64,000 nucleotides of DNA. It comes from Candidatus Poribacteria bacterium. GTDB taxonomy: Bacteria; Poribacteria; WGA-4E; WGA-3G. A program made the position numbers and the translations under genes. Below the pieces are notes generated by a model. That model worked only from the letters and a program-made list of their open reading frames with translations. It did not search any database and was not told where the DNA came from. The stretch covers positions 1,728,133-1,792,132 of the forward strand of contig OZ244616.1 of assembly GCA_965218285.1 (NCBI GenBank), given 5' to 3'. This document shows, one piece after another, positions 5,169 to 61,069 of the stretch. Position 1 is the first letter of the stretch, and each line of letters begins with the position of its first letter.

Positions 5169-6164
5169 TTAGTCAACTTTTTTAATTTGTGCACCTATGT
5201 TGTTCGCATAAGTAATAAAACATGTGCCACCATTCGGCAATGTTGCAAGGAATTCTTCTGTTTTACGTTTTAAGGTATCTATATCCTCACTAACGGCACA
5301 AATTGCAGGTCCCCAACTACTAACACCAGCCCCTAATGCTCCGTTTGCTTGTAAAAAATCAAGTGTTTGCTGCAATTCATCACCTTGTGCATCAATCTCC
5401 ACCCTTTTCCAACCGAACGTTTGAATTTGGTTCAAAACGTCTCCGAAACTCTGCATATCGTTTTCAAGGAGTGCCGGTAATAGTTGCATCAGCAGTAGGT
5501 GTGATAATTTCGGTGCAACAGATGCAGGTTGTGGACATAGTGTTCGAAAGAGATTTAATTCTTCTTCGCCATAAATGCGCGAACAATTTGGCATGACAAT
5601 CAAGAGACGCCATGATGGAAACTTATGTCGAAGTAAAATCGGTGGTGGAGAAATATCATCTGCGGCAGCAGAAGGGAGAAAAGAGGATTTTTGTTCAGGA
5701 TAACGATGCCCTCCATCTACTATGAACCCACCCGTATCAAACGCCGCAATGCCGATGCCGGAAGTGCCACCACGTCCTACTGCGTTAGCAAGTTCTAAAA
5801 CACTTAAATTCAGATCATAGAAAAGGTTTACTGCAGAAGCGATACCAAGAGAGAGTTGTGTGCCTGAACCGAAGCCGCTATGCGTTGGGATTTCAGAGAT
5901 AAATTTTAGTTTAATGCCGGGAAACTGGTAGATTTTTTGCAGTTGTGCAAGAATAGCACACGCGCGTTCATGATAGGCAGAAGATTCAACGTAAATATCA
6001 TTTGACGGTTCGGCAATGATCTCAAAATTCGGTTCTGTGATGGCTAACCCGAACCCACCATCAATTCGACCGAGTTGGCCATTTAAATCAATTAATGAAA
6101 AATGGAGTCGGGCGGGGGTGGTAATTCTGATTTGGTTTATTGTGGTGTTAGTTTCGCCTTTCAT
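5169..6164 (-). CDS. GHMP-kinase-fold protein (beta-RFAP-synthase-like)
   Basis: Gly/Ser-rich phosphate-binding loop IPTHSGFGSGTQLSLGIASA and N-terminal ARLHFSLIDLNG block. Overlaps the upstream ABC ATPase gene by 17 nt. Confidence 0.5.
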   Translation of the reverse strand: MKGETNTTINQIRITTPARLHFSLIDLNGQLGRIDGGFGLAITEPNFEIIAEPSNDIYVESSAYHERACAILAQLQKIYQFPGIKLKFISEIPTHSGFGSGTQLSLGIASAVNLFYDLNLSVLELANAVGRGGTSGIGIAAFDTGGFIVDGGHRYPEQKSSFLPSAAADDISPPPILLRHKFPSWRLLIVMPNCSRIYGEEELNLFRTLCPQPASVAPKLSHLLLMQLLPALLENDMQSFGDVLNQIQTFGWKRVEIDAQGDELQQTLDFLQANGALGAGVSSWGPAICAVSEDIDTLKRKTEEFLATLPNGGTCFITYANNIGAQIKKVD

Positions 6165-6828
6165 CTTGCTCTATGAGACCGTCCCGAATGTGGAGGACGC
6201 GTCTTGCATGTTCCGCAACCTCAGGTTCATGCGTAACCATGATGATAGTATTACCTTCTTCATTAAGGCGGTCAAAAATAGCCAAAATCTCGGCACCAGA
6301 GCGTGTGTCCAAGTTTCCAGTTGGTTCATCTGCGAAAACGAGTGATGGCTTATTTACAAGGGCGCGCGCGATAGCAACGCGTTGAACCTGTCCACCGGAC
6401 AGTTCGGTTGATTTGTGGTCAACTCGGTCAGATAATCCGACTGCTTCCAAGGATTCAAATGCTCTACGTTTTCGTTCTTTTCTGCCCAAGCCAGAATAGA
6501 TAAGCGGAAGTTCAACATTGTGGAGAGCACTTGTTCTCGGAAGAAGGTTGAATGACTGGAATACAAAACCGATCTTTTTATTTCGGATGTCTGCTAAGCG
6601 GTTATCCGAAAGTTTACCAACCTCTTCACCTTCAAAGTAGTACTCACCGTCTGTTGGGGTAGCGAGACATCCCAAGATGTCCATCATGGTTGATTTCCCT
6701 GATCCGGAGGGTCCCATAATTGCGATAAACTCGCCTGACTCCACTGTGAAACTCACACCTCGCAATGCATGGACCTGTACATCACCCATCTCATAGATTT
6801 TTGTAATGTCTTTGACGTCAATTAACAT
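6148..6828 (-). CDS. ABC transporter ATP-binding protein (MacB/LolD/FtsE-like, stand-alone ATPase)
   Basis: Walker A GPSGSGKST, signature LSGGQVQRVAIARAL, Walker B LVFADEPTGNLD, H-loop VTHE. Confidence 0.9.
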   Translation of the reverse strand: MLIDVKDITKIYEMGDVQVHALRGVSFTVESGEFIAIMGPSGSGKSTMMDILGCLATPTDGEYYFEGEEVGKLSDNRLADIRNKKIGFVFQSFNLLPRTSALHNVELPLIYSGLGRKERKRRAFESLEAVGLSDRVDHKSTELSGGQVQRVAIARALVNKPSLVFADEPTGNLDTRSGAEILAIFDRLNEEGNTIIMVTHEPEVAEHARRVLHIRDGLIEQDERRN

Positions 6829-6859
6829 ACTATTTTACACCTCTTCTTTTGCTCATAGG

Positions 6860-6990
6860 TTACACCCAATTAACGGGATCTGTCCTATTTTCCAGACGGT
6901 AGGTGCGGTTTCCTAACCGCACCATAGGCGTCAATTTAGTGGTCCCCAACCCGGTAGGTGCGGTTTCTAACTGCACCTTTTTGTATCAAC
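6860..6990. repeat. Composite repeat: family-1 MITE left half fused to two REP-like hairpins (ggtaggtgcggtttcctaaccgcacc at 6898-6923 and the variant at 6951-6977)
   Basis: Direct inspection. Part of the nested repeat cluster 6829-7555. Confidence 0.6.
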
Positions 6991-7014
6991 ATCTCAAATA
7001 ACGCAAAGGACGAG

Positions 7015-9520: not shown

Positions 9521-10860
9521 TACTGTAAGACTCCCATTGCATCTTGTAATCGTGCGCGCGCAATTATGTAATCGTAAAATGCGTTCACTTGATTCGTCAA
9601 TGCTTGTGCGTAACTTGTTTGCGCATCAAGGACCTCAAGAAGAATTGCTTTTCCAACCTTATAACGTCCCTGAATGACATCTAAACTTAGTTGTGCGTTA
9701 ATTACCTGTGTATTAGAGATTTCTACTGCGATTTCGCTTCGTTTCAGATTTAGATAACTTTGTCGTACGTCGAGAGCAACGGACCGTTCCAAGTCGCCTG
9801 CATTTTCCCGTGCCTGTTCCAACTGCATATCAAGCTCTTTGACGCGATTCCCCAAAACGCCCGCATCAAAAAGTGTAAAGTTAAGCGATGCACCTGCGCT
9901 CCAACTTCGAAAATCGGAAAAATTTTGACGTTCACGAAGGTAATCATCAAGGTTTACGTTATAATTTACGTCTGCATTCAAACGGGGCCAACGTTGCAAT
10001 TTTGAAAGTGTCAAACTCCATTCCTGCTGTTTCAGTTGTGCTTCGGTCTCCTTGAATTCCGGGCGATTTTCAAATGCCATCTGCATTGCTTCTTCAACAG
10101 TAATATCGATTTTCTCAATAGTCCCACGTTCCACATATAATTGAAAGGATTCATCAAGCGCAACAGTAATAAGCAGTCCAGGGTCCAATCCCATCAGTCG
10201 AGGCAAAGTGGCTTGCGAGATTTGAAGCGAATTCTGATTATTTAGCAGCCCCAATTCGCTATTGGCTTCACGAACTCTCGCTGTAGCGATATCCGCCTTG
10301 ATTAGCACACCTGCTTCTTGCAATGCTATAGTTTGTTCTGTGTTTTCTTTTGAACGCGCTAATATATCTTCACTAACCTTAACAAGTGCAGTGTCTTTAA
10401 GGACATTGTAATATGCTTGTGTAATCTGTAGAATTACACTTTGTTTAATACCTTCATTCCGGTTGGTTGTAGCCCTCAATCCTTCTTTCGCTTGTGCGTA
10501 ACTTACTTCACGTTGTCCATTATCCCAAAGTGTATATCGTCCTGCCAATCCTAAATTATAGTTTTCTGGTTCAAAGCCGAAATCCAGTCTATCTGAAAAA
10601 TCGTAGCGTCCAGAGGAGATAATTGTGGGAAAATAGCCTGCACGTGAATTTTTCAGACGTAGTTCCTGAATAGCAAGACTCAACCTTGCATTTCGCATAG
10701 TTGTTGCCTTTTCTAACCCCAACTGAATGCACTGTTCAAGCGTTAGCGGTTGAGACAGGTCAATTTCCTCTGGTACTTGTGCGTTTACACATATAATTAC
10801 CATGAACTGAAGAACAGTCAAGATAAGTATTAACCCTAATTTCCATCGAAGCATTAGCAT
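9520..10860 (-). CDS. TolC-like outer-membrane efflux protein
   Basis: Signal peptide and the two-fold repeated architecture of the OEP family in 446 aa. Confidence 0.75.
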   Translation of the reverse strand: MLMLRWKLGLILILTVLQFMVIICVNAQVPEEIDLSQPLTLEQCIQLGLEKATTMRNARLSLAIQELRLKNSRAGYFPTIISSGRYDFSDRLDFGFEPENYNLGLAGRYTLWDNGQREVSYAQAKEGLRATTNRNEGIKQSVILQITQAYYNVLKDTALVKVSEDILARSKENTEQTIALQEAGVLIKADIATARVREANSELGLLNNQNSLQISQATLPRLMGLDPGLLITVALDESFQLYVERGTIEKIDITVEEAMQMAFENRPEFKETEAQLKQQEWSLTLSKLQRWPRLNADVNYNVNLDDYLRERQNFSDFRSWSAGASLNFTLFDAGVLGNRVKELDMQLEQARENAGDLERSVALDVRQSYLNLKRSEIAVEISNTQVINAQLSLDVIQGRYKVGKAILLEVLDAQTSYAQALTNQVNAFYDYIIARARLQDAMGVLQ

Positions 10861-11138
10861 CTCCTTAAACCTAAAATTTGTACTACGGAAGATCGTAATT
10901 TTGGGTAATAAGCCGTTTTTATTTTGACAATAATTAATTTTAAAAGTTCAGAACAAATTCTGAGTGCCAGTTTTTTAATAAGTATATTGTCAATTTTGAC
11001 TCAATTCAAGAAAAAAAGTTTAGTAATTATTTCAGTGAAGGATTCCGATTTTCCTTGTAATTTTCTCCTATTTCTTATAAAATGAGCAGAAGTGTTAGCA
11101 CAATTTTCAATTGAATTCTAAACTTTAGGTATAGGTAG

Positions 11139-17164: not shown

Positions 17165-17412
17165 TGTCCTATATTTATACCAAATTAACTTGATTCGAAG
17201 TCTTTTGATAGAGTACACGGTTGCGAGGCACGGGGACCTCGCAGGACAAATCCCGCTAATTCGGTATTATACCAAATTGACTTGATTCGAAGTTTCCCGA
17301 TAAAGTCAAGCATTGCGAGGCACGGGGACCTCGCACTACAAATGATAGAGTACACGGTTGCGAGGCACGGGGACCTCGCGGGACACATCGGGGTAATTGG
17401 GTATAACTCAAA
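17165..17412. repeat. Tandem cluster of three family-1-type hairpin units (gcgaggcacggggacctcgc) with taccaaattgac/taccaaattaac ends
   Basis: Three copies of ...gttgcgaggcacggggacctcgc... spaced about 70-80 bp apart. The cluster lies exactly between the two copies of the duplicated opp/MNT-HEPN module. Confidence 0.65.
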
Positions 17413-49180: not shown

Positions 49181-49287
49181 CCAAATTAACTTATACCCAA
49201 TTAACCCGATTTGTAGCGCGAGGTCCCCGGGTCCTCCTCGCAATGCTGATTTTATCAGAAGACGTCTAATCAAGTTAATTTGGTATT
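49181..49287. repeat. Family-1 MITE
   Basis: ccaaattaac...gcgaggtccccgggtcctcctcgc...gttaatttggtat. Confidence 0.65.
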
Positions 49288-51024: not shown

Positions 51025-52017
51025 CTACTCGTCAAGCCAACTCATCATACTACGCAAATTCTTGCCAACTTCCTCAATCTGCAATTCTGCTTCCTGTCGT
51101 CGGAGTGCGCGCAGTACTGCTTGGTTAGCCTGATTCTCAAGCACCCACTCTCTTGCGAAGATACCACCCTGCACATCTTTGAGAATCTGGCGCATTTTTT
51201 CCCGAACGCTATCGTCAATGAGTCGGGGACCGCGCGTGAGGTCACCATATTCTGCGGTATTACTGACATCGTTCCGCATTTTGCTCAACCCACCAGCATA
51301 GATTAGGTCAACAATCAGTTTCAATTCGTGAAGGCATTCGAAGTATGCCATTTCTGGTTGATACCCCGCTTCAACGAGTGTATCAAATGCGGCTTTAATA
51401 AGAGCTGCAGTACCACCACATAGCACAGCTTGTTCACCAAAAAGATCAGTCTCCGTTTCTTCACGGAATGTAGTTTCGATGACCCCAGCACGTGTGCCAC
51501 CAATGCCTCTTGCATAAGCGAGTGCGATATCGCGCGCAGCACCAGTCGTGTCTTGATGGATAGCAATGAGACACGGCACACCACCACCCCCTTCAAATAC
51601 TTCGCGGACGAGGGAACCAGGACCCTTTGGGGCAATCATTGTAACATCAATATCGTTGGCAGGCACAATCTGTCCAAAATGTACGCTGAACCCGTGCGAC
51701 ACCATCAGCATGTTTCCTGCCTGCATATTCGGCGCGATCCCTTCAAGGTACACAGCAGAATGTTTTTCGTCGGGGATGAGAATCTGAACGACATCCGCCA
51801 TCTCGGATGCTTCTTCAACTGTTTTGACGGTTAAGCCTTCTGCTTCTGCACGTGCTATTGAGCGACTGCCTTCGTATAGTCCAACAACAACGTTTGCGCC
51901 GCTGTCTTGAAGGTTTAGTGCTTGCGCCCTACCTTGTGCACCATAACCGATGATGGCGACGGTACGTTGTTTCAGTAAATCAAAATTGGCATCACTATCG
52001 TAATAAATTGTTGCCAT
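51025..52017 (-). CDS. ilvC: Ketol-acid reductoisomerase
   Basis: Rossmann [17 protein letters not shown] and the KARI C-terminal domain. Confidence 0.95.
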
Positions 52018-52064
52018 AAAGTTGGTCCTCTCTTTTGAATCTTTTAATGTTTTGCCAACGCGTA

Positions 52065-52598
52065 CTATTTTGTAGCACCCCGCATTATCGCTATTTTGCC
52101 GGTGCGCGCTAATTCAAGAATACCGTATGCGTTAAAAATCTCAATCGCCGCTTCTAATTTACCTTCATCACCAGTAATTTCAATCACGAGGGACTCAGGC
52201 TTTGTATCTATAACCCGCGCACGGAAGACCTCTGCAACTTGTAAAATCTCAGTGCGTTTCTGCGGATCAGCAGTGCAAATCTTGAGGAGAAGGAGTTCAC
52301 GTTCAACATGCGTGCCGACAGAAAGGTCTGTAACCTCAATAACGTCAATCAGTCTGTTTAGATGCTGGTAAATCTGATCAATAATCTGTGCATCCCCATG
52401 TGTTACAAGCGTAATCTGTGAGATGCTCTTGTCATGTGTTTCAGCGACGTTGAGACTGTCGATATTGAAACTACGTCCGCTAAAAAGTCCTGCGACACGT
52501 GCAAGCACTCCAAATCGGTTTTCGACCAAAACCGAAAAAATATGTCGTTCTTCTTTAGTGATACTCACTACGGCTAAAGCCGTGTGCTTCTTTTGCAC
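52065..52598 (-). CDS. ilvH: Acetolactate synthase small (regulatory) subunit
   Basis: ACT domain [20 protein letters not shown] start preceded by AGGAGA. Confidence 0.9.
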
Positions 52599-52637
52599 AC
52601 AACTCTCCTATGTGATTCCTGCTTCTGTCTCTCGTGC

Positions 52638-52945
52638 CTCCGAATGAGGTCTTACTTGGACTCCACAGGCGTAACTTTCCGTGTATCCCACGGTAGGTTG
52701 TTAGTGAATGTGGTAGGGTCGTTGTCCTAACAACGGACATTAGTTTTTCTCTACCACATTCTAATGTTTTAAGTGATTTCGCACCAGCATCACACACCTT
52801 TCCACAGGTGAGGGATAGGACCCATACAGGTTGTCCGGGGTGGAAACCCTATCCACGATGGGACATATAGTCCAACATGTTTTGGTGCAAATGTCATAAG
52901 TTTTTTGACCCACGGCTAAAGCAGTGGGATTGTCAGCTAATTCCC
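52638..52945 (-). repeat. B-type IS200/IS605-related structured element in the ilvB-ilvH spacer
   Basis: Both terminal hairpins (gaggtcttacttggactccacaggcg; gacccacggctaaagcagtgggattg) match 34142-34525. The interior is unrelated. Confidence 0.5.
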
Positions 52946-53083
52946 TTCATTTTATGCTAACTTTTCCCTCGCCTTACAGGCGAATCGGTTTTGATGGGAT
53001 GTGAGGAGAATAGTGTTTATCCGGAATTACACGAGAATAGACAAGAAGTGTTTTGTGCCTTGTTCTCCTCACAGACGTGGAAT

Positions 53084-54760
53084 TTAAGATAGTCCTCGGA
53101 TTACATCCCCAAGACCCGCTCCCGCGGGCACCATCGGGAATACGTTCTCCTCTTCGTCAACAATGAAATCAATGACAACAGGACCGTCGTTAATACCTTT
53201 TGCCTTCAGTAATGCGGGTTCAACATCTTCGGGATGTTCAACCCGAAGACCGGTCGCACCAAATGCTTGTGCAAGCAAGGCGAAATCAGGATTGTCGTGG
53301 TAATCAACAGCAGAATAACGTTTGTCATGAAACAATTCCTGCCATTGACGCACCATCCCTAAATACATATTGTTGATGATAAATATCTTAAGCGGCAACT
53401 TCATCGTAACCGCAGGCACCAACTCTTGTATAGTCATTATATAGGACCCATCGCCGTTGATATTGACAACGGTTTTCTCTGGGCATCCGAGTTGTGCACC
53501 GATTGCAGCTGGCAGACTGAAACCCATCGTGCCGAGACCGCCAGAGTTGAGCCACGTCCGAGGTTCGGTAAATTTGAAATATTGTGCCGCCCACATCTGG
53601 TGTTGCCCGACATCCGCTACAACAATAGCATCACTATAGTGTTCATAAATCTGCTCTATGACATATTGTGGCATCACTTTATTGCCTTTTTGCTCGTATT
53701 CAAACGGATATTTCTGTTTCCATTCCTGAATCTGATCGCGCCACGGATCAATATCTGTTGTACCGACTTGCTTATTTAATTCGGTAAGGACATTCTTTGC
53801 ATCACCAACAATTGGCACATCTACTGGCACATTTTTCCCGATACAAGAAGCATCGATATCAATATGTATCTTTTTCGCATTCGGTGCGAATTTACTCAAA
53901 TTACCAGTAACCCTGTCATCAAATCTTGCCCCAATAGCAATAACGAGATCCGCATCAGTGAAAGCGTAATTGGCGCAGCAAGAGCCATGCATACCGGGCA
54001 TCTCCATCGCCAACGGGTGTGTCTCTGGAAATGCGCCGAGTCCCATCAAGGTGACAGTAATAGGGATACGTGTTTTGAGGGTTAACTCTCGCAGCTCTTC
54101 ACTTGCATTGGCAAGCACAACACCACCGCCAGCATAAAGCATCGGACGTTTAGCTTCCTTGATTAATGCAACGGCTTTGGCAATTTGCGCTGGATCCCCA
54201 TGCACTTGTGGTTTATAACTGCGAATGTCAACTGTTTCTGGATATTGAAACAAGGTTTTGTGGAGCTGAGCATCTTTAGCGATGTCAATAATAACAGGAC
54301 CCTGTTTCCCTGTGCTAGCGATATGGAATGCTTCTGCAACAACATCGGCTACCTCATTGCTGTCTTTGATAAGATAACTGTGCTTACAGATCGGTCGAGT
54401 TACACCGATAACATCACATTCTTGGAAAGCATCGCTGCCGATATGGTGGGTGTACACCTGCCCGGTAATCGCAACCATCGGAATTGAATCCATATAGGCA
54501 GTTGCAATTCCGGTAACAAGGTTAGTTGCGCCAGGACCGGAGGTAGCGAGTGCAACCCCGACCTTCCCCGTGGCGCGTGCATATCCATCAGCAGCGTGAG
54601 AGGCTCCCTGCTCATGCCGCATCGGAATCAAATTTACTTCTGTTTCGTCGTACAGGGCATCAAAAATCGGCATTGCCGCGCCACCGTTAACACCGAAGAT
54701 ATATTCGACACCTTCACGTTTGAGACTATCAACCAGGATTCTCGCTCCTGAAAGTTCCAT
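53084..54760 (-). CDS. ilvB: Acetolactate synthase large subunit
   Basis: TPP-enzyme blocks GVPGDSIPMVAITGQV-like and GGLGTMGFSLPAAIGAQ. Start at MELSGARI, preceded by GAGGAA. Confidence 0.9.
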   Translation of the reverse strand: MELSGARILVDSLKREGVEYIFGVNGGAAMPIFDALYDETEVNLIPMRHEQGASHAADGYARATGKVGVALATSGPGATNLVTGIATAYMDSIPMVAITGQVYTHHIGSDAFQECDVIGVTRPICKHSYLIKDSNEVADVVAEAFHIASTGKQGPVIIDIAKDAQLHKTLFQYPETVDIRSYKPQVHGDPAQIAKAVALIKEAKRPMLYAGGGVVLANASEELRELTLKTRIPITVTLMGLGAFPETHPLAMEMPGMHGSCCANYAFTDADLVIAIGARFDDRVTGNLSKFAPNAKKIHIDIDASCIGKNVPVDVPIVGDAKNVLTELNKQVGTTDIDPWRDQIQEWKQKYPFEYEQKGNKVMPQYVIEQIYEHYSDAIVVADVGQHQMWAAQYFKFTEPRTWLNSGGLGTMGFSLPAAIGAQLGCPEKTVVNINGDGSYIMTIQELVPAVTMKLPLKIFIINNMYLGMVRQWQELFHDKRYSAVDYHDNPDFALLAQAFGATGLRVEHPEDVEPALLKAKGINDGPVVIDFIVDEEENVFPMVPAGAGLGDVIRGLS

Positions 54761-55453
54761 GCCAATTTCCTCATAAACGGTTGTAGGCACATTACGTCGT
54801 GCCATAAACTTGTTGAAAGAAAAAACCCTCTCGTTCCACCTTTGGAGACGAGAAGGATGCTAAACTCACCTTTCCGTGGTACCACTCCAATTTACTCACT
54901 CGGTTTCAAGGCGATTATTCTAATCAACCCATCTATGCCGAGAGAGCACTCTTTGGGATGCAATAACGGACATCACACCGGCTAACCTTACTAAAAAACC
55001 ATTCAGATTAGCAGCTCCAGGACGACTTTCAGTCGTGGGTACTTGAGGCAACCTCTCAGCCTACGAGTCACCTTCTCTTACAAGACCGTCAGACCTACTC
55101 TTCCCCTTCAACGCTTTTTATAATCTATTTAATTTTTTATTTGACACGCCGTTCTTGCTAACGCTCACGGGTGTTTCTGAATTCTGTTATTTTACCCTCT
55201 AATTATAACACATCTGAACGGAAATGTCAAGAAAAAGTAGAACTTGCTTGTCTATTTAGTATTCTAACCGCACCTACCGTTCATGGAGGACCGCTAAATT
55301 GAAACCTATGGGTTTCACATTCGTTCAAACTCGCCAAATTCCATAAGCGCATTTGGCGTTGATTCCCTATGACTAAATTTGAACTATCAGTTTCCGTAAT
55401 CTCAATCAGAAGATTAAGACTATGGAAACGGAAAGTTTGTTAAGGGAGGTTGA

Positions 55454-56266
55454 TTATTGCAAGGATTTAAGTTGTCCCCAAACAACGCTGACTTTACCCG
55501 TTGGGTCTACCGATTGTAATTCGGTGGCAAAACGATTCGACATGAGTTCAGCAAGTTCTATTGCGATTTGGTCATTTGGCGGAATGGTAGTGCCGGAAGA
55601 TGTATGGAAGTTGATGAACCATCCGTCCATATCATCTGTTCTGTAGGCGATTGGATCCGCATCTGTGCCGTTATCTGAATAACTTTCAAACTCAAAATTG
55701 TTTTGTTCTAAAACTGTCATACCTACAGGACGGTTTGATGTCCACTGTTTGAGTGAAGGCATATATTGCTTACCTAAATCGGTAGGGGATGCATTTACAG
55801 TATTAGCATTTGTAACGGTAACGCCAAACACACTTTGCTGACCTCTCTTCTCATTGGTAACCCGACTATTTGTACCATAATTCCAATAATAGTAGAAAGG
55901 CCAATCCCCAATCATTGCAGCGATTCCACCATCCCTTAACCAAGAATGAATCAAATCGTCTGCTCCCTTATTTTGGAATATTGTATCTGGGACATTTCCC
56001 TGGGTAAGGACTATGATACCATTTGGGTTTGCATTCATATATTCTGCAACACCTTCACCGTCAACGATTTCCGCAGTTAGTTTGTTATCCTCAAGTTTTT
56101 CTACAATGAGGTCTGCTAACCCTTGCGCCCCCGGTTGCCCTCCTGGAATGCCTAAGCCAGCACCTTTTTCCAAATTAATATCGTAAGCAACAGCGACGTC
56201 TTGTGCGAAACTGTAACTCACAAAAGTTAGCACGATAATTGATATAATACAAAAAAACTTTTTCAT
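55454..56266 (-). CDS. Secreted ThuA-like / class-I glutamine-amidotransferase-like protein
   Basis: Start MKKFF with AGGAGA RBS and a signal peptide. C-terminal tail GKVSVVWGQLKSLQ. Confidence 0.4.
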   Translation of the reverse strand: MKKFFCIISIIVLTFVSYSFAQDVAVAYDINLEKGAGLGIPGGQPGAQGLADLIVEKLEDNKLTAEIVDGEGVAEYMNANPNGIIVLTQGNVPDTIFQNKGADDLIHSWLRDGGIAAMIGDWPFYYYWNYGTNSRVTNEKRGQQSVFGVTVTNANTVNASPTDLGKQYMPSLKQWTSNRPVGMTVLEQNNFEFESYSDNGTDADPIAYRTDDMDGWFINFHTSSGTTIPPNDQIAIELAELMSNRFATELQSVDPTGKVSVVWGQLKSLQ

Positions 56267-56450
56267 GGTTAGTTCTCCTAATTGGCAGATCACATTTGTT
56301 TAACTTTTAAAGTAGTTAGATAATTTAATATAACATATTTGAACAGAAATATCAAGATTTTATTAATTGCTTGACAAAACTACCATATTATGATAGTTTA
56401 TACATGCGTCAATTAAGGATAAATATTCGACTTTCAGGATCGAGGAAAGA

Positions 56451-59135
56451 TTGATGAATCAAAAATACAAATCCGTTTACTTTCCGGATCATCCGGGGGA
56501 AACATCTCAGAAAAAATCGTTAACTTTAGCATTTGGTAAGAAAACAGGTGAACTTTATGAGCGTATTAAGGGACTTTCAAGTGCTGAACTTCGTCAGTTA
56601 TTTGGAGATGACTATCAAACACTTGTAGAAAATGCTAAAGTTGATGACTTACCTTTAAACACCTATTGCCTTCGCCAATTAAAGCAATCTGTGAATTTTA
56701 TTCATGATCCTGCTATTCAACTTAAACTGCCAGGTATGGAGGAAAAAACAGAATTATTTGATCCGGTGACTGTAACTTTTAAGGATGGACGAAAAGAGCC
56801 TTTTGCTCGATGGTACCCGTACTTAGAAGGATACTCAACCCAATTTGTGGAAGCAATATTGAAAAACTACGCCCCGAACGCCCAGAACATCTTAGATCCA
56901 TTTGCTGGAACAGGAACAACCGTCTTCACCGCTGCCCAACTTAACAAAGCTGCTTATTTCTGTGAAGTAAATCCAGTTCTGCAATTTATAAGTTTAACAA
57001 AAATACGGATCCGGTTATTAAAGGTGTCTCAACGATCAGCAATAGCCAAAGAACTTGTTCAAGTTAAAAATTCGCTAAAAAAACTTGAAAAAATTCCACG
57101 AAATTATGCTCTACATCAAGCATACATACAAACCTTTGGCGACAGTTTATTTTTTGATGCACCTGTTTATGACAAGGTTTTACGAACTCGCTCGTGGATT
57201 GATGAAGTCGCCCTTGAAAATCCAATCTTAGCCGACCTTATCACAGTTGCTGTCCTATCAGCCCTTGTCCCTGCGTCCCGGATGAAACGGTCAGGTGATT
57301 TGAGATACAAGACAGCAAAGGAACTTGCGCGGCAAACAGTACCGCTCATTGAAGGTATTTGCCAAAATTTCAATCAGATAGCTCATGATATCCGAAATGA
57401 TGTTGATGGACTGAAAACTGAACCATTGCTAATATGTGAAAACGCTCACACGTTAGACAATATATCACCTCTCGGTATTGATACCGTAATTACAAGTCCA
57501 CCTTATGTCAATGGAACAAACTATTTTCGCAATACGAAGATAGAATTATGGTTCTTGCGTTGTTTAAAAGAAAAGAAAGACTTGACAAGGTTTCGCGCTG
57601 CTTCCTTAACTGCAGGCATCAACGATGTAACTGTCTCTAAAATGCCTACTCTATCTCACCCCAGTGTTCAGAAAATTGTTTCCAAACTTAAACAAAATGC
57701 CTACGATTCCCGTATCCCTCGGATGGTTGCTTGTTATTTTAGTGAGATTACGGAAGTATTCAGGGCAATTGGTCCTCACTTAACCCCTGATGCAACAGTC
57801 GCGATTGATATTGGGGATTCTTGTTACGCAGGTGTTCACGTTCCGGTAGATGAGTTGTTGTCAACGTGCCTGCAAGACCTAGGTTTTGTTCAAAAAGATT
57901 CCATGACACTACGAAAACGCAAATCTAGAGGTGGAATGTTGCTTAAACAATCATTACTTGTATTTAAACATTCCTCCAAACCGAAAAGAGAAACTTCCAA
58001 TAAGCGAATCATGGATTGGAGCGACGATTGGAACATCTTCAAGCAAAACCTACCCCACCAGAAAACACCGTTTGCTAAAAGGAATTGGGGGAACTCTCGG
58101 CACTCCTTATGTTCTTATCCTGGCAAACTTAAACCTGCTATCGCACACCATTTGGTACAAACATTTGTTCCAGAAGATGGGCGAGTTTTAGATCCATTCG
58201 CGGGTGCCGGCACAATTCCATTTGAGGCATCACTGGCCGGTAAACACGCCTACGGTTTTGAGATAAGCCCCGCCGCTTTTGCTATTGCTAGTGCGAAGGT
58301 TCAACAACCTACTGAACAGGGTTGTACAACAGTTATTGAGACATTAGAAAATTTTATTGACTGTCACTCAACCGCAGATGCAGAGGTCACTGAAGTGAAG
58401 CATCTAGGGTTCAATGGAAAGATTGTCGAATATTACGAGGCTCAAACCTTGAGAGAAGTTCTCTTAGCGCGACGCTATTTTCAAATTCATCCACCCCAGA
58501 CACCCGAAGAGCGATTGGTGTTTGCTTCGCTGCTCCATATTTTGCATGGCAATCGTCCGTATGCGCTCAGTCGCCGTTCCCACCCACTTACACCTTACAA
58601 ACCTACCGGTCCTTACGAATATCGTCCGCTGATCAATCAACTACGCGCGAAAGTCCAGCGGAGTTTGGATGAAAATTTGCCAGTGAATTTTAAACCGGGA
58701 AAGATATTTTTCCAAGATGCAACAAACTGGTGGCCTAGAGAGATCGAACAACTAGATGCCGTTATTACGTCTCCACCTTTCTTTGATAGTACTCGATTTT
58801 ACGCTGCGAATTGGTTACGGCTATGGTTTTCAGGTTGGTCCGCCCATGATTTTAAAACATGCCCATCAGTTTTTGTTGATGAAAAGCAAAAAAATAGTTT
58901 TGATGTATATATCCCAATTTTTCGCCAAGCGAAAGAACGACTAAAATCTAATGGCGTGGTTGTGATGCATCTAGGAAAAAGTATTAAGTGTGATATGGCG
59001 GATCATTTACAAAAGCTTGGTAAACAGTGGTTTCGTTCGGTAGATCTGTTTGATGAAAACGTTGCACATTGTGAATCTCACGGTATCCGAGACAAAGGAA
59101 CAGTTACGTCACATCAGTATCTTGTTTTGTATTGA
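56451..59135 (+). CDS. DNA methyltransferase with two tandem amino-MTase modules
   Basis: Module 1: ILDPFAGTGTTVF (motif I) ... VITSPPYVNGTNYF (motif IV). Module 2: LDPFAGAGTIPF ... VITSPPFFDSTRFY. Each I-to-IV spacing is about 190 aa. Confidence 0.75.
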   Translation: MMNQKYKSVYFPDHPGETSQKKSLTLAFGKKTGELYERIKGLSSAELRQLFGDDYQTLVENAKVDDLPLNTYCLRQLKQSVNFIHDPAIQLKLPGMEEKTELFDPVTVTFKDGRKEPFARWYPYLEGYSTQFVEAILKNYAPNAQNILDPFAGTGTTVFTAAQLNKAAYFCEVNPVLQFISLTKIRIRLLKVSQRSAIAKELVQVKNSLKKLEKIPRNYALHQAYIQTFGDSLFFDAPVYDKVLRTRSWIDEVALENPILADLITVAVLSALVPASRMKRSGDLRYKTAKELARQTVPLIEGICQNFNQIAHDIRNDVDGLKTEPLLICENAHTLDNISPLGIDTVITSPPYVNGTNYFRNTKIELWFLRCLKEKKDLTRFRAASLTAGINDVTVSKMPTLSHPSVQKIVSKLKQNAYDSRIPRMVACYFSEITEVFRAIGPHLTPDATVAIDIGDSCYAGVHVPVDELLSTCLQDLGFVQKDSMTLRKRKSRGGMLLKQSLLVFKHSSKPKRETSNKRIMDWSDDWNIFKQNLPHQKTPFAKRNWGNSRHSLCSYPGKLKPAIAHHLVQTFVPEDGRVLDPFAGAGTIPFEASLAGKHAYGFEISPAAFAIASAKVQQPTEQGCTTVIETLENFIDCHSTADAEVTEVKHLGFNGKIVEYYEAQTLREVLLARRYFQIHPPQTPEERLVFASLLHILHGNRPYALSRRSHPLTPYKPTGPYEYRPLINQLRAKVQRSLDENLPVNFKPGKIFFQDATNWWPREIEQLDAVITSPPFFDSTRFYAANWLRLWFSGWSAHDFKTCPSVFVDEKQKNSFDVYIPIFRQAKERLKSNGVVVMHLGKSIKCDMADHLQKLGKQWFRSVDLFDENVAHCESHGIRDKGTVTSHQYLVLY

Positions 59136-60147
59136 CATCAGTTTCCTGATGAATTACTCTTTGGTACTCTTGATCGGCTTGAAGTACCCAAGCGGACGAA
59201 ATGGTTGTTGAATGCTTAAAAAAATCAAAGTTTTCATACTTCAAAATACGATTTCGTAACTTGATGATTTCTTGCCTATATGCCGCATATTTTGTCAAAA
59301 GGTTATCTACTTGTTCAGGAATCTTAAGGCATTCAAGTGCCTCAGGATTATAGTGTGGTTGCCCAGTTAGTGTTTCGTATTGAACACCAGTCAGAACAGC
59401 AAGTTGCTTTAACTCGTTGTCTGAGTAATATGCTGATGGCCATTTACCTGATTTTTCGGTGTTATGTTCTCGGCACAGCAGGGTTGCATTTTCTGTTGTC
59501 AAAGGCCATAAAAAAACAGCAGGAAGTGTATGATCAAGTGGACGTTCTTTTGCTTCAACTTTTCGGAGGTCTTTCTTGCACTTAAAACAACAATAGTCAA
59601 AACGTTTGTAAATTTCCTCACTATTGATTTTGGCACTTCCAGAGAGATCCAGATACATCCGCCGCTTTTGTGAAGTTTCACGGTGCTGATCTGTCAACCG
59701 AGTCTTATTTTTAATCGAATTGTAAACCTTCTTGCATATTTTACACTCACTCTGACGGTTTGACTTCCGAGCACGATGCTGGTCAAAAAAATCAAGCGGT
59801 TTCATTGTATTGCAGACAATGCAATATTTATACTCTTGTGCTTCCTCAATATAGTCATCGTGCAGAATTGTAAATGTTCCTTCCTCAATAATGGAATTAT
59901 CTCTCCGATCTTCCAGTTTGTACTCATAGAACTGAGTTTCGTCGCCTGATAACATAATTATCCCACAACTCGGACAAATAATTTCAAAATCATCACCGAT
60001 TTCACCTTTACGAATGAAGATGAATTCCAAGCATTTACTGTTTAGACACTGGAAACCTTTGAAAACTACATCCCCCATCCCTTGAACATGTTCTGCACGA
60101 ATTTGATTTGTTTTAACGACCTTTGTATACGGTTTGCGTCTCGGCAT
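59104..60147 (-). CDS. HNH endonuclease with several CxxC zinc ribbons (putative restriction endonuclease)
   Basis: LDHTLPAVFLWPLTTENATLLCREHNTEK matches the HNH core (DH...EN..LLCR.CN..K). Zinc-ribbon pairs CPSCG, CIVC, CKIC and CCFKC are present. Its 3' end overlaps the MTase gene by 32 nt. Confidence 0.7.
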   Translation of the reverse strand: MPRRKPYTKVVKTNQIRAEHVQGMGDVVFKGFQCLNSKCLEFIFIRKGEIGDDFEIICPSCGIIMLSGDETQFYEYKLEDRRDNSIIEEGTFTILHDDYIEEAQEYKYCIVCNTMKPLDFFDQHRARKSNRQSECKICKKVYNSIKNKTRLTDQHRETSQKRRMYLDLSGSAKINSEEIYKRFDYCCFKCKKDLRKVEAKERPLDHTLPAVFLWPLTTENATLLCREHNTEKSGKWPSAYYSDNELKQLAVLTGVQYETLTGQPHYNPEALECLKIPEQVDNLLTKYAAYRQEIIKLRNRILKYENFDFFKHSTTISSAWVLQADQEYQRVIHQETDVNTKQDTDVT

Positions 60148-60221
60148 TTTACCCTCGCAACTTGTCGTTCCGAAGTGCTGAATGTCTGACTACATTTCCT
60201 CTTGATAACACTTTCATCTGG

Positions 60222-60309
60222 TACCAAATTAACGGGATTTGTAGCGCGAGATCCCCGTGCCTTGCAATGTTGACTTTATCGGAAAACTCCGAATCAAGTT
60301 AATTTGGTG
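60222..60309. repeat. Family-1 MITE
   Basis: taccaaattaacggga...gcgcgagatccccgtgccttgc...gttaatttggtg. Confidence 0.65.
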
Positions 60310-60460
60310 TGATGTATATTTTGTTTTGAATTATTCAGCGATTTCTGGAAGAATTGTCTGCTTGTGTGAACGGATAGAACCCGATAGATTGTGTCTGTTC
60401 CAATAAAAAAGTAGGGGCAGATTGAAAACCACCCCTACACAAAACTTCAAGTCGGTTTAC

Positions 60461-61069
60461 TTAGGCGTTTGCCAGATAAAGTTCATTGACCTTGGACCAA
60501 TTGATAACATTTTTCCACTCCTCAACGTAATCTGGACGGCGGTTCTGATAGTTCAGATAGTATGCATGTTCCCAGACGTCAATCCCAAGTATCGGTGTAT
60601 GTCCCTGCATAATTGGACTATCTTGATTTGCTGTGGAGTAAATCTCCAATCCATTGTCACCAATAACAAGCCATGCCCAACCAGAACCGAAACGTTTGGT
60701 TGCAGCAGTAGTGAATTCTTCATTCGCAGCATCAAGCGATCCAAAGGCAGATTTTATCGCTTCTCCGACTTCACCACTGCTGGGTTCACCACCGTTAGGA
60801 CTCATAATTGACCAGAAAAGCGAATGATTAGCATGACCACCGCCGTTGTTGATGACTGCCTGACGTTTATCTTCGGGCACTTGGTCAAGGTTACCGAGAA
60901 GTTCGTGAACATCAATGTCCGCCACTGCACCGAGTCCTTCCAAGGCAGCGTTCAGGTTGTTGACATAGCCTTGATGGTGTTTGCCGTGATGGATCTCCAT
61001 TGTTTGTGCGTCAATATAAGGTTCCAAAGCATCGTGTGCATAAGGAAGTCTTGGTAATGTGTGTGCCAT
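60461..61069 (-). CDS. Fe/Mn superoxide dismutase
   Basis: [29 protein letters not shown] and DVWEHAYY signatures. Confidence 0.95.

Follow-up and report, generated by a model that had tools for sequence, protein, structure and literature searches.

The window analysed here is a stretch of 64,000 nucleotides (nt) from contig OZ244616.1 of a Candidatus Poribacteria bacterium, and its positions 56451-60147 hold a pair of genes that had been described, from the letters alone, as resembling a restriction-modification (R-M) system. Two open reading frames (ORFs) are arranged convergently: the methylase gene (56451..59135, plus strand), encoding a fused double DNA methyltransferase of 894 amino acids (aa) when read from a TTG at 56451, and the nuclease gene (59104..60147, minus strand), encoding a putative restriction endonuclease of 347 aa with a zinc-ribbon N-terminal part, an HNH core and a helical C-terminal domain. 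Their 3' ends share 32 nt (59104..59135), and the identical overlap is present in 30 of 86 related loci, which belong to Poribacteria, Latescibacterota, Anaerolineae/Anaerolineales, one metagenome-assembled genome (MAG) of the Chthonomonadaceae and one MAG binned as Gammaproteobacteria. Since both ORFs have hundreds of full-length homologs, they do not represent a chance pattern. The cassette, with a GC content of 0.37-0.40 versus approximately 0.43 for the window, is flanked by ilvC, ilvN and ilvB on one side and by sodA on the other. The intrinsic terminator of sodA, detected by a terminator scan (60411..60438, minus strand), forms the outer cassette boundary. The nearest loci (80-87% protein identity) all come from metagenome-assembled Candidatus Poribacteria.

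The two proteins

The TTG at 56451 is directly followed by an ATG at 56454 and homologs measure 893 aa, so that the true start of the methylase is probably 56454 (893 aa). The 1505 homologs of this protein are mostly 893-896 aa long. The two pairs of motifs I and IV reported by the original prediction are both present in the 894-aa ORF, with DPFAGTG at aa 149 and SPPY at aa 349, followed by DPFAGAG at aa 581 and SPPF at aa 774. Three parts can be distinguished along the plus strand. An N-terminal extension of approximately 105 aa (56451..56765) is without a family match; it is kept in fused-gene lineages from Poribacteria through Proteobacteria and absent from Bacillota and split-gene homologs, which align only from approximately aa 96-109. 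In the AlphaFold2 (AF2) model this extension forms a small domain of strands and helices, followed by a disordered linker (aa 85-115). Module N (aa 106-510; 56766..57980) contains motif I at 56895-56915, a central variable region and motif IV at 57495-57506, and module C (aa 525-894; 58023..59132) repeats this layout with motif I at 58191-58211 and motif IV at 58770-58781. In each module, the S-adenosylmethionine (SAM)-binding motif is thus followed by about 200 variable residues and then by the catalytic motif, which is the order of the alpha class.

The methylase matches the Pfam family N6_N4_Mtase well over the cutoff (8e-25), and the PADLOC Type II methyltransferase model PDLC03389 spans module N from end to end (aa 106-507, 1.9e-65). 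Other PADLOC Type II methylase models match module C (approximately aa 547-860), in whose motif I region matches to Pfam UPF0020 and N6_N4_Mtase are also located. The two modules are 25% identical to each other (E 9e-9). A SAM-binding fold was recovered by structure prediction: the AF2 model (predicted local distance difference test, pLDDT, 78; predicted template modelling score 0.71) matches solved amino-DNA-methyltransferases in Foldseek searches, including TTHA0409, the Adineta vaga N4-cytosine enzyme, Dam, M.BceJIV, CcrM, M1.HpyAVI and RsrI. Dam, an alpha-class enzyme, is among the matches with the best root-mean-square deviation. Two diverged amino-methyltransferases of the alpha class are fused in the large protein, and Pfam, PADLOC and fold matches agree on the double amino-methyltransferase that had been predicted. 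One Pfam N6_N4_Mtase match (aa 343-613), running from motif IV of module N into motif I of module C, was considered as a beta-class unit; it was rejected, as each module aligns end-to-end with stand-alone methylases and the joined segment is therefore not a real unit.

Weaker matches to families of the UPF0020/RlmL, Trm11/Trm14, RsmD and PrmC types, together with RlmKL and Trm11 among the fold matches, could be taken to mean that the large protein methylates RNA or protein and that the pair is not an R-M system. This is highly improbable. The matches to rRNA and tRNA methylase families are confined to the generic SAM-binding motif I region and lie far under the family cutoffs, the full-length matches are Type II DNA methylase models, the best folds are those of DNA methyltransferases, and the constant nuclease partner points to DNA. 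As for the methylated base, SPPY and SPPF are invariant in 31 homologs and are also present in the methylase genes of the Psychrobacter plasmid cassette described below. The motif SPP(Y/F) is a hallmark of N4-cytosine methyltransferases (PMC6712171). An alpha-class enzyme of this kind, M.DraR1 of Deinococcus radiodurans, has been shown experimentally to form N4-methylcytosine (m4C) (PMC6712171). It resembles each module in the order of its motifs (N-terminal FxGxG, central recognition region, C-terminal SPPY) and differs in being a single module that recognises the palindrome CCGCGG. Because of this hallmark and the shared motif order, m4C appears to be the likelier product of the methylase.

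The nuclease is built around conserved cysteine pairs. The four or five CxxC pairs that had been noted correspond to CxxC at 58/61, 109/112, 135/138 and 187/190 and a Cx4C at 34/39. The first Cys4 zinc ribbon (C34, C39, C58, C61; 59965..60048, minus strand) lies in a region that is absent or different in distant relatives sharing only the core, while the second (C109, C112, C135, C138; 59734..59823, minus strand) gives a weak match to Pfam Stc1. In the HNH (beta-beta-alpha-metal) core (59461..59589, minus strand; C187-x2-C190, D205-H206, N220, C225-x2-H228, N229), DHTLP at aa 205 is followed by ENATLLCREHNTEK at aa 219-232. All of the cysteine pairs, and hence the four cysteines of either ribbon, are invariant in 38 homologs, as are C225, D205, H206 and N229; N220 and H228 are conserved in at least 90% of them. 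Several homologs replace H228 by cysteine (LLCRKCN, LLCRTCN), an alternation that would fit a site in which C187, C190, C225 and H/C228 coordinate the structural zinc ion of an HNH finger. The C-terminal domain (aa 237-336; 59140..59439, minus strand) is all-helical, modelled with a pLDDT of approximately 85-94 and conserved in full-length family members; as a guess, it might serve dimerisation or DNA contact.

Assignment of the core to the HNH class was borne out by several independent comparisons. The AF2 model of the nuclease (pLDDT 83) places strands at aa 204-206 and 221-223, followed by a helix at aa 226-232, and its Foldseek matches in the PDB are almost all HNH-domain proteins, chiefly Cas9, then EcoKMcrA and Cap5, with best probabilities of 0.9-1.0. 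Among PHROG families, the nuclease matches endonuclease VII over aa 98-243, including the second zinc ribbon (1.7e-12), and HNH endonuclease (6e-4). Searched by its sequence, the nuclease yielded no match among PDB chains at E <= 10, and only the profile built from 38 homologs reached Cas9 HNH domains, aligning the DH, N and N residues with those of the Nme Cas9 HNH domain (E 1.2e-3). The homolog P0374, which aligns with the nuclease in hhalign at 2e-23, clears the Pfam HNH cutoff (24.7 vs 21.4 bits). The small protein is a member of the HNH/His-Me finger superfamily and a putative metal-dependent nuclease.

The best structure and profile matches, namely the HNH domain of the Nme type II-C Cas9, EcoKMcrA and Cap5 of the cyclic oligonucleotide-based antiphage signalling system CBASS, cover approximately aa 153-245 and align the Asp-His pair, the Asn and the metal-site Asn. 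This likeness holds at the level of the domain only (E about 1e-3, 14-20% identity). The aligned Cas9 HNH domain does not have the CxxC...CxxH zinc-site residues of the window nuclease, and none of the three proteins has a counterpart of its two zinc ribbons and helical C-terminal domain.

Linkage, spread and loss of the gene pair

Homologs of the nuclease numbered 722 at E <= 1e-3, counted as representatives of 90%-identity clusters. A profile search of 1.8 billion representative proteins (50%-identity clusters, E <= 1e-3) returned 856 relatives. In public databases these proteins are named 'hypothetical protein', 'HNH endonuclease', 'McrA' or 'TFIIS', and the Joint Genome Institute labels them 'RNA polymerase subunit M/TFIIS'. 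The family is widespread, uncharacterised and poorly annotated, and the intact two-gene cassette of the window is familiar in its design.

The methylase adjoins the nuclease in 84 of 86 loci from about ten phyla. These comprise Poribacteria, Latescibacterota, Chloroflexota, Acidobacteriota, Bacteroidota, Bacillota, Actinomycetota, Alpha- and Gammaproteobacteria and Spirochaetia, with Anaerolineae, Pyrinomonadaceae, Acidimicrobiia and many Bacillota also named among the linked loci. Cultured carriers are Ureibacillus manganicus, Paenibacillus favisporus, Vreelandella venusta, Lacibacter sp. and Tabrizicola sp. Of the linked pairs, 79 are convergent, 4 tandem and 1 divergent, and the methylase is fused in 66 of the 86 loci and split into two genes in 16. 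As the flanking genes differ between phyla, the pair evidently travels as one unit and is kept intact when genes are rearranged, and comparison of these loci shows horizontal spread of the gene pair across phyla. Linkage of this extent, across many phyla and several gene orders, gives strong support to the pairing of a modification with a restriction gene that the original prediction had proposed. On the sequence evidence, we consider it likely that the pair is an uncharacterised Type II R-M system, probably one that recognises an asymmetric site and places m4C on both strands.

Since the nuclease shows domain-level similarity to the phage endonuclease VII and HNH families of PHROG, its gene might instead be a selfish homing or phage-type endonuclease that is functionally unrelated to the methylase. 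This explanation is very hard to sustain. A tblastn search of the nuclease against 50,697 phage records gave no match, and the association of homologs with insertion sequences or phages, which had been named as evidence that would speak against an R-M pair, was not encountered: nuclease genes occur in chromosomal contexts without phage genes, on one plasmid and in some defence islands. The sole plasmid match is itself an R-M cassette, and the nuclease remains linked to the methylase in different phyla and gene orders. The pair is moreover found between sodA and ilvB in each of eight Poribacteria genomes.

The R-M pattern extends to more distant relatives that share the HNH core. On the small Psychrobacter plasmid pA39BP3 (NZ_MN657077), the two halves of the methylase are adjacent genes in the same order as the modules; the product of 416 aa is 41% identical to aa 109-507 (module N) and that of 382 aa is 51% identical to aa 525-893 (module C). 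In this plasmid and in a second locus (L097), a helix-turn-helix (HTH) gene is followed by the nuclease gene, which is convergent with the two methylase genes. The HTH genes near such relatives are of the controller-like HTH_3 type; a controller gene is absent from the main family, whereas the distant relatives with split methylases have one. Two further loci (L098 and L099) carry two methylase genes and the nuclease gene, followed by OLD-family and UvrD-like genes, and in another (L100) a gene for a GmrSD Type IV enzyme lies alongside two methylase genes. The surroundings of these three loci are defence islands. The OLD-family ATPase/TOPRIM and UvrD-like genes of L098 and L099 form a Gabija-like pair.

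The cassettes of pA39BP3 and its metagenomic relatives are true homologs of the window system, with 32% identity in the HNH core (aa 132-272). They differ in that their nucleases are longer (471-560 aa), have an unrelated N-terminal part and are preceded by the HTH controller-like gene. These cassettes are likewise uncharacterised and annotated as 'hypothetical protein', and a literature search on plasmid pA39BP3 found nothing. Many of the relatives from the profile search are similarly large (430-560 aa) and have only approximately aa 128-277 in common with the window nuclease, that is, the second zinc ribbon, the linker and the HNH core, with differing N-terminal parts. Such a distribution indicates a constant cleavage module that is joined to exchangeable recognition domains. 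By this comparison, the recognition function of the window nuclease is likely located in aa 1 to approximately 128. The modular build, in which relatives combine the HNH core with other N-terminal domains, is also suggestive of a possible Type IIS-like cleavage at a fixed distance outside the recognised site.

Among Poribacteria, the pair lies between sodA and ilvB in eight genomes (L001, L007-L011, L032 and L076, compared with window positions 51025-61069). Relative to the window, the nuclease is 83-87% and the methylase 77-83% identical, compared with 82-87% for SodA and 90-94% for IlvB. The constant site and a divergence similar to that of SodA point to long vertical inheritance of the cassette in Poribacteria. 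Such long vertical residence is unusual for an R-M system.

Loss of the nuclease gene can be followed in several of the related loci. The nearest relative (L087; 93% DNA identity) has a methylase of 97% identity and a clean deletion of the nuclease gene with its upstream region. The deletion, seen on comparing L087 positions 10640-10990 with window positions 59154-60413, removes the equivalent of approximately 59158-60402 of the window, from just past the methylase stop codon up to the sodA terminator, so that only the overlapped 3' end of the nuclease gene is kept and the orphan methylase adjoins sodA. Into the sodA terminator of L087, a different inverted-repeat element of about 200 nt is inserted and flanked by a duplicated 'ggggcagattgaaaccacccc'. 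Two loci (L025 and L032) have a frameshifted nuclease gene and an intact methylase gene, in L017 both genes are broken, and L066 combines a nuclease cut short at aa 218 with the absence of a methylase. Damage to the nuclease gene by frameshift or truncation is recurrent, being also seen in L059 and L085, and some of the damaged copies may be assembly errors. Loss of the nuclease first, with retention of the methylase, corresponds to the behaviour of R-M systems and is hard to explain for functionally unrelated genes.

Predicted mechanism and relation to known systems

If the pair acts as a Type II R-M system, each methylase module would mark one strand of a non-palindromic site, probably as m4C, and the N-terminal zinc-ribbon/beta part of the nuclease would probably read the same site. 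The zinc-stabilised HNH module, in which H206 is taken as the general base and N229 as a residue of the metal site, would then probably cut DNA that does not carry the methyl marks. By analogy to other HNH enzymes of Type IIS, a single HNH centre could cut both strands through dimerisation or two sequential nicks. The conserved convergent overlap of 32 nt could additionally couple the expression of both genes via transcriptional interference. Nuclease activity, protection by methylation, the asymmetry of the site, the m4C product and the reading of DNA by part of the nuclease are features that we infer.

The presence of a single HNH active site per chain also fits a strand-specific nicking or repair endonuclease, that is, a Vsr-like helper of the methylase, and small repair nucleases do accompany some methylases. 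We regard such a helper as very unlikely here, because the size of the protein (347 aa), its two additional zinc ribbons and its large helical domain look like those of a site-specific enzyme and its relatives occur with controller-type HTH genes and among defence genes. In addition, deamination of m4C yields uracil, which is handled by general uracil repair, so that a dedicated helper is not expected.

Apart from the homologous cassettes, the restriction system proposed for the window can be compared with characterised systems by description. The overall design of the pair, judged by analogy, matches that of Type IIS-like systems. In the FokI system, a fused double methylase serves the two strands of an asymmetric site; M.FokI makes N6-methyladenine (m6A), and R.FokI is a PD-(D/E)XK enzyme. 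Hpy99I, Eco31I and MnlI are zinc-containing HNH Type II enzymes, in which a beta-beta-alpha-metal nuclease is combined with structural zinc. FokI-type methylases and these HNH enzymes share design principles with the window system, the likeness again being one of description only. A further parallel is HpyAII, which employs two amino-methyltransferases for the two strands of its asymmetric site, one of them making m4C. This Type IIS system of Helicobacter pylori recognises GAAGA/TCTTC and has an HNH-type restriction endonuclease (PMC7494987). The latter carries a classical HH...N...H motif at residues 328-359 and is reported without Cys-rich zinc sites (PMC7494987), whereas the window nuclease is Cys-rich and its DH...N...N signature is closer to Cas9-type HNH domains. 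The HpyAII methylases are moreover encoded by separate genes rather than fused, and the likeness to this system is by description only. In the MhoVII system of Mycoplasma hominis (GATG/CATC), a fused M1-M2 methylase modifies complementary halves of a non-palindromic site and thereby blocks a separate endonuclease (PMC12898733). The MhoVII modules, however, are of two different classes, the YhdJ and D12 types, form m6A and carry DPPY, in contrast to the alpha-type order and SPPY/SPPF motifs of both window modules. In addition, the MhoVII nuclease is not described as an HNH enzyme (PMC12898733), which the window nuclease is.

Several observations weigh against an asymmetric-site R-M system with m4C protection. 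On the side of the methylase, SPPY/F predicts m4C and falls short of proof, and two modules would equally fit the methylation of two different bases in one site. On the side of the nuclease, the Foldseek E-values are weak (7e-3 or worse), and the protein itself has no direct match to any curated Pfam, NCBIfam or PADLOC model; in PADLOC-DB, no model matched the 347-aa sequence even at E <= 1, and the comparison with this library placed it in no characterised family of restriction enzymes. A scan for depleted k-mers in the window and 14 Poribacteria loci carrying the system (238 kb) yielded no candidate site attributable to it. The depleted words were palindromes, namely CCWGG (observed/expected ratio 0.43), CATATG (0.18), GACGTC (0.25), GTCGAC (0.31) and RGCGCY-type words, and the few depleted non-palindromic hexamers are halves of degenerate palindromes. 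This pattern suggests that other R-M systems shape these Poribacteria genomes. The main caveat comes from mouse-gut Lachnospiraceae (Sporofaciens, Dorea), whose nuclease homolog is intact, highly conserved and complete in its catalytic residues and is without a methylase gene at a distance of up to 6 kb (L051 and L089-L096, positions 6001-7011). This solitary nuclease is listed in 191 blocks of the assembly collection and is 77% identical to a methylase-linked copy in Acidaminococcus; its neighbours are a convergent gene for a HARE-HTH protein of 313 aa and, on the other side, EF-G and trkAH. A toxic restriction enzyme would not be expected to occur alone, except where the methylase is encoded elsewhere in the genome. 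The 120 closest relatives of the nearest partner methylase include none from the 5.4-Mb Sporofaciens contig, where a more diverged methylase is possible.

The HARE-HTH domain family has been linked to restriction enzymes, and an intact solitary nuclease beside such a protein can also be read as a sign of another kind of target, the HNH protein being either modification-dependent (Type IV, McrA-like) or directed differently in some other way and happening to travel with the methylase. The appearance of EcoKMcrA among the fold matches and the naming of one homolog record at NCBI as 'McrA' point in the same direction. The label is an automatic COG name, however, and a nuclease that cuts methylated DNA would be suicidal beside a methylase in 84 of 86 loci unless the specificities differ. 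Loss of the nuclease with retention of the methylase, in turn, fits a nuclease that is held in check by the methylase, and a McrA-like role is accordingly judged improbable.

A broader proposal is that the nuclease could belong to an uncatalogued modular superfamily of restriction enzymes, in which a constant zinc ribbon, HNH core and methylase pair are combined with interchangeable N-terminal recognition domains. Residence between sodA and ilvB across species-level divergence in Poribacteria and the existence of methylase-only derivatives there and of nuclease-only derivatives in another lineage would hint at roles beyond defence. We hold this proposal to be rather unlikely as a whole. If it is true, epigenetic control in the poribacterial sponge symbiont could be a function of the orphaned double methylase, and the solitary Lachnospiraceae nuclease with its HARE-HTH partner could have a new function. 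For annotation, libraries of defence systems would miss the locus as a complete system, as PADLOC recognises the methylase and has no model for the nuclease. Characterisation of one cultured member would name a new family of restriction enzymes, possibly with a new asymmetric specificity and m4C protection, after which thousands of methylases now called 'orphan' could be annotated anew. In the context of the Poribacteria genome, the pair would be an ordinary defence cassette.

Surroundings of the cassette

On the ilvB side, an ORF of 279 aa (55454-56293, minus strand) adjoins the methylase gene and encodes a hydrophobic segment at its N-terminus. It is much more variable between Poribacteria genomes (63-71% identity) than adjacent genes such as ilvB (90-94% for IlvB), and its counterpart in L087 gives only a weak Pfam match to MJECL34. 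A promoter scan around both genes of the pair detected fewer sigma-70-like sites than were found in shuffled sequence and was uninformative.

On the sodA side, a dispersed repeat of approximately 87 nt with terminal inverted repeats (60222..60308) lies between the sodA terminator and the start codon of the nuclease gene, in the putative promoter region upstream of the latter. The original prediction had placed a miniature inverted-repeat transposable element (MITE) of a 'family 1' at the end of the locus, and the element is indeed a real dispersed repeat, with further copies in the window at 1865-1952, 17179-17403 (about three in tandem) and 49194-49284. It is bounded by the terminal inverted repeats CCAAATTAAC...GTTAATTTGG and is predicted to fold into a strong hairpin of -32 kcal/mol (z = -3.4). 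The repeat looks like a poribacterial MITE or an element of the repetitive extragenic palindromic type, and is best treated as a neighbour of the putative R-M cassette. L087 carries the same repeat at other places, including tandem copies.

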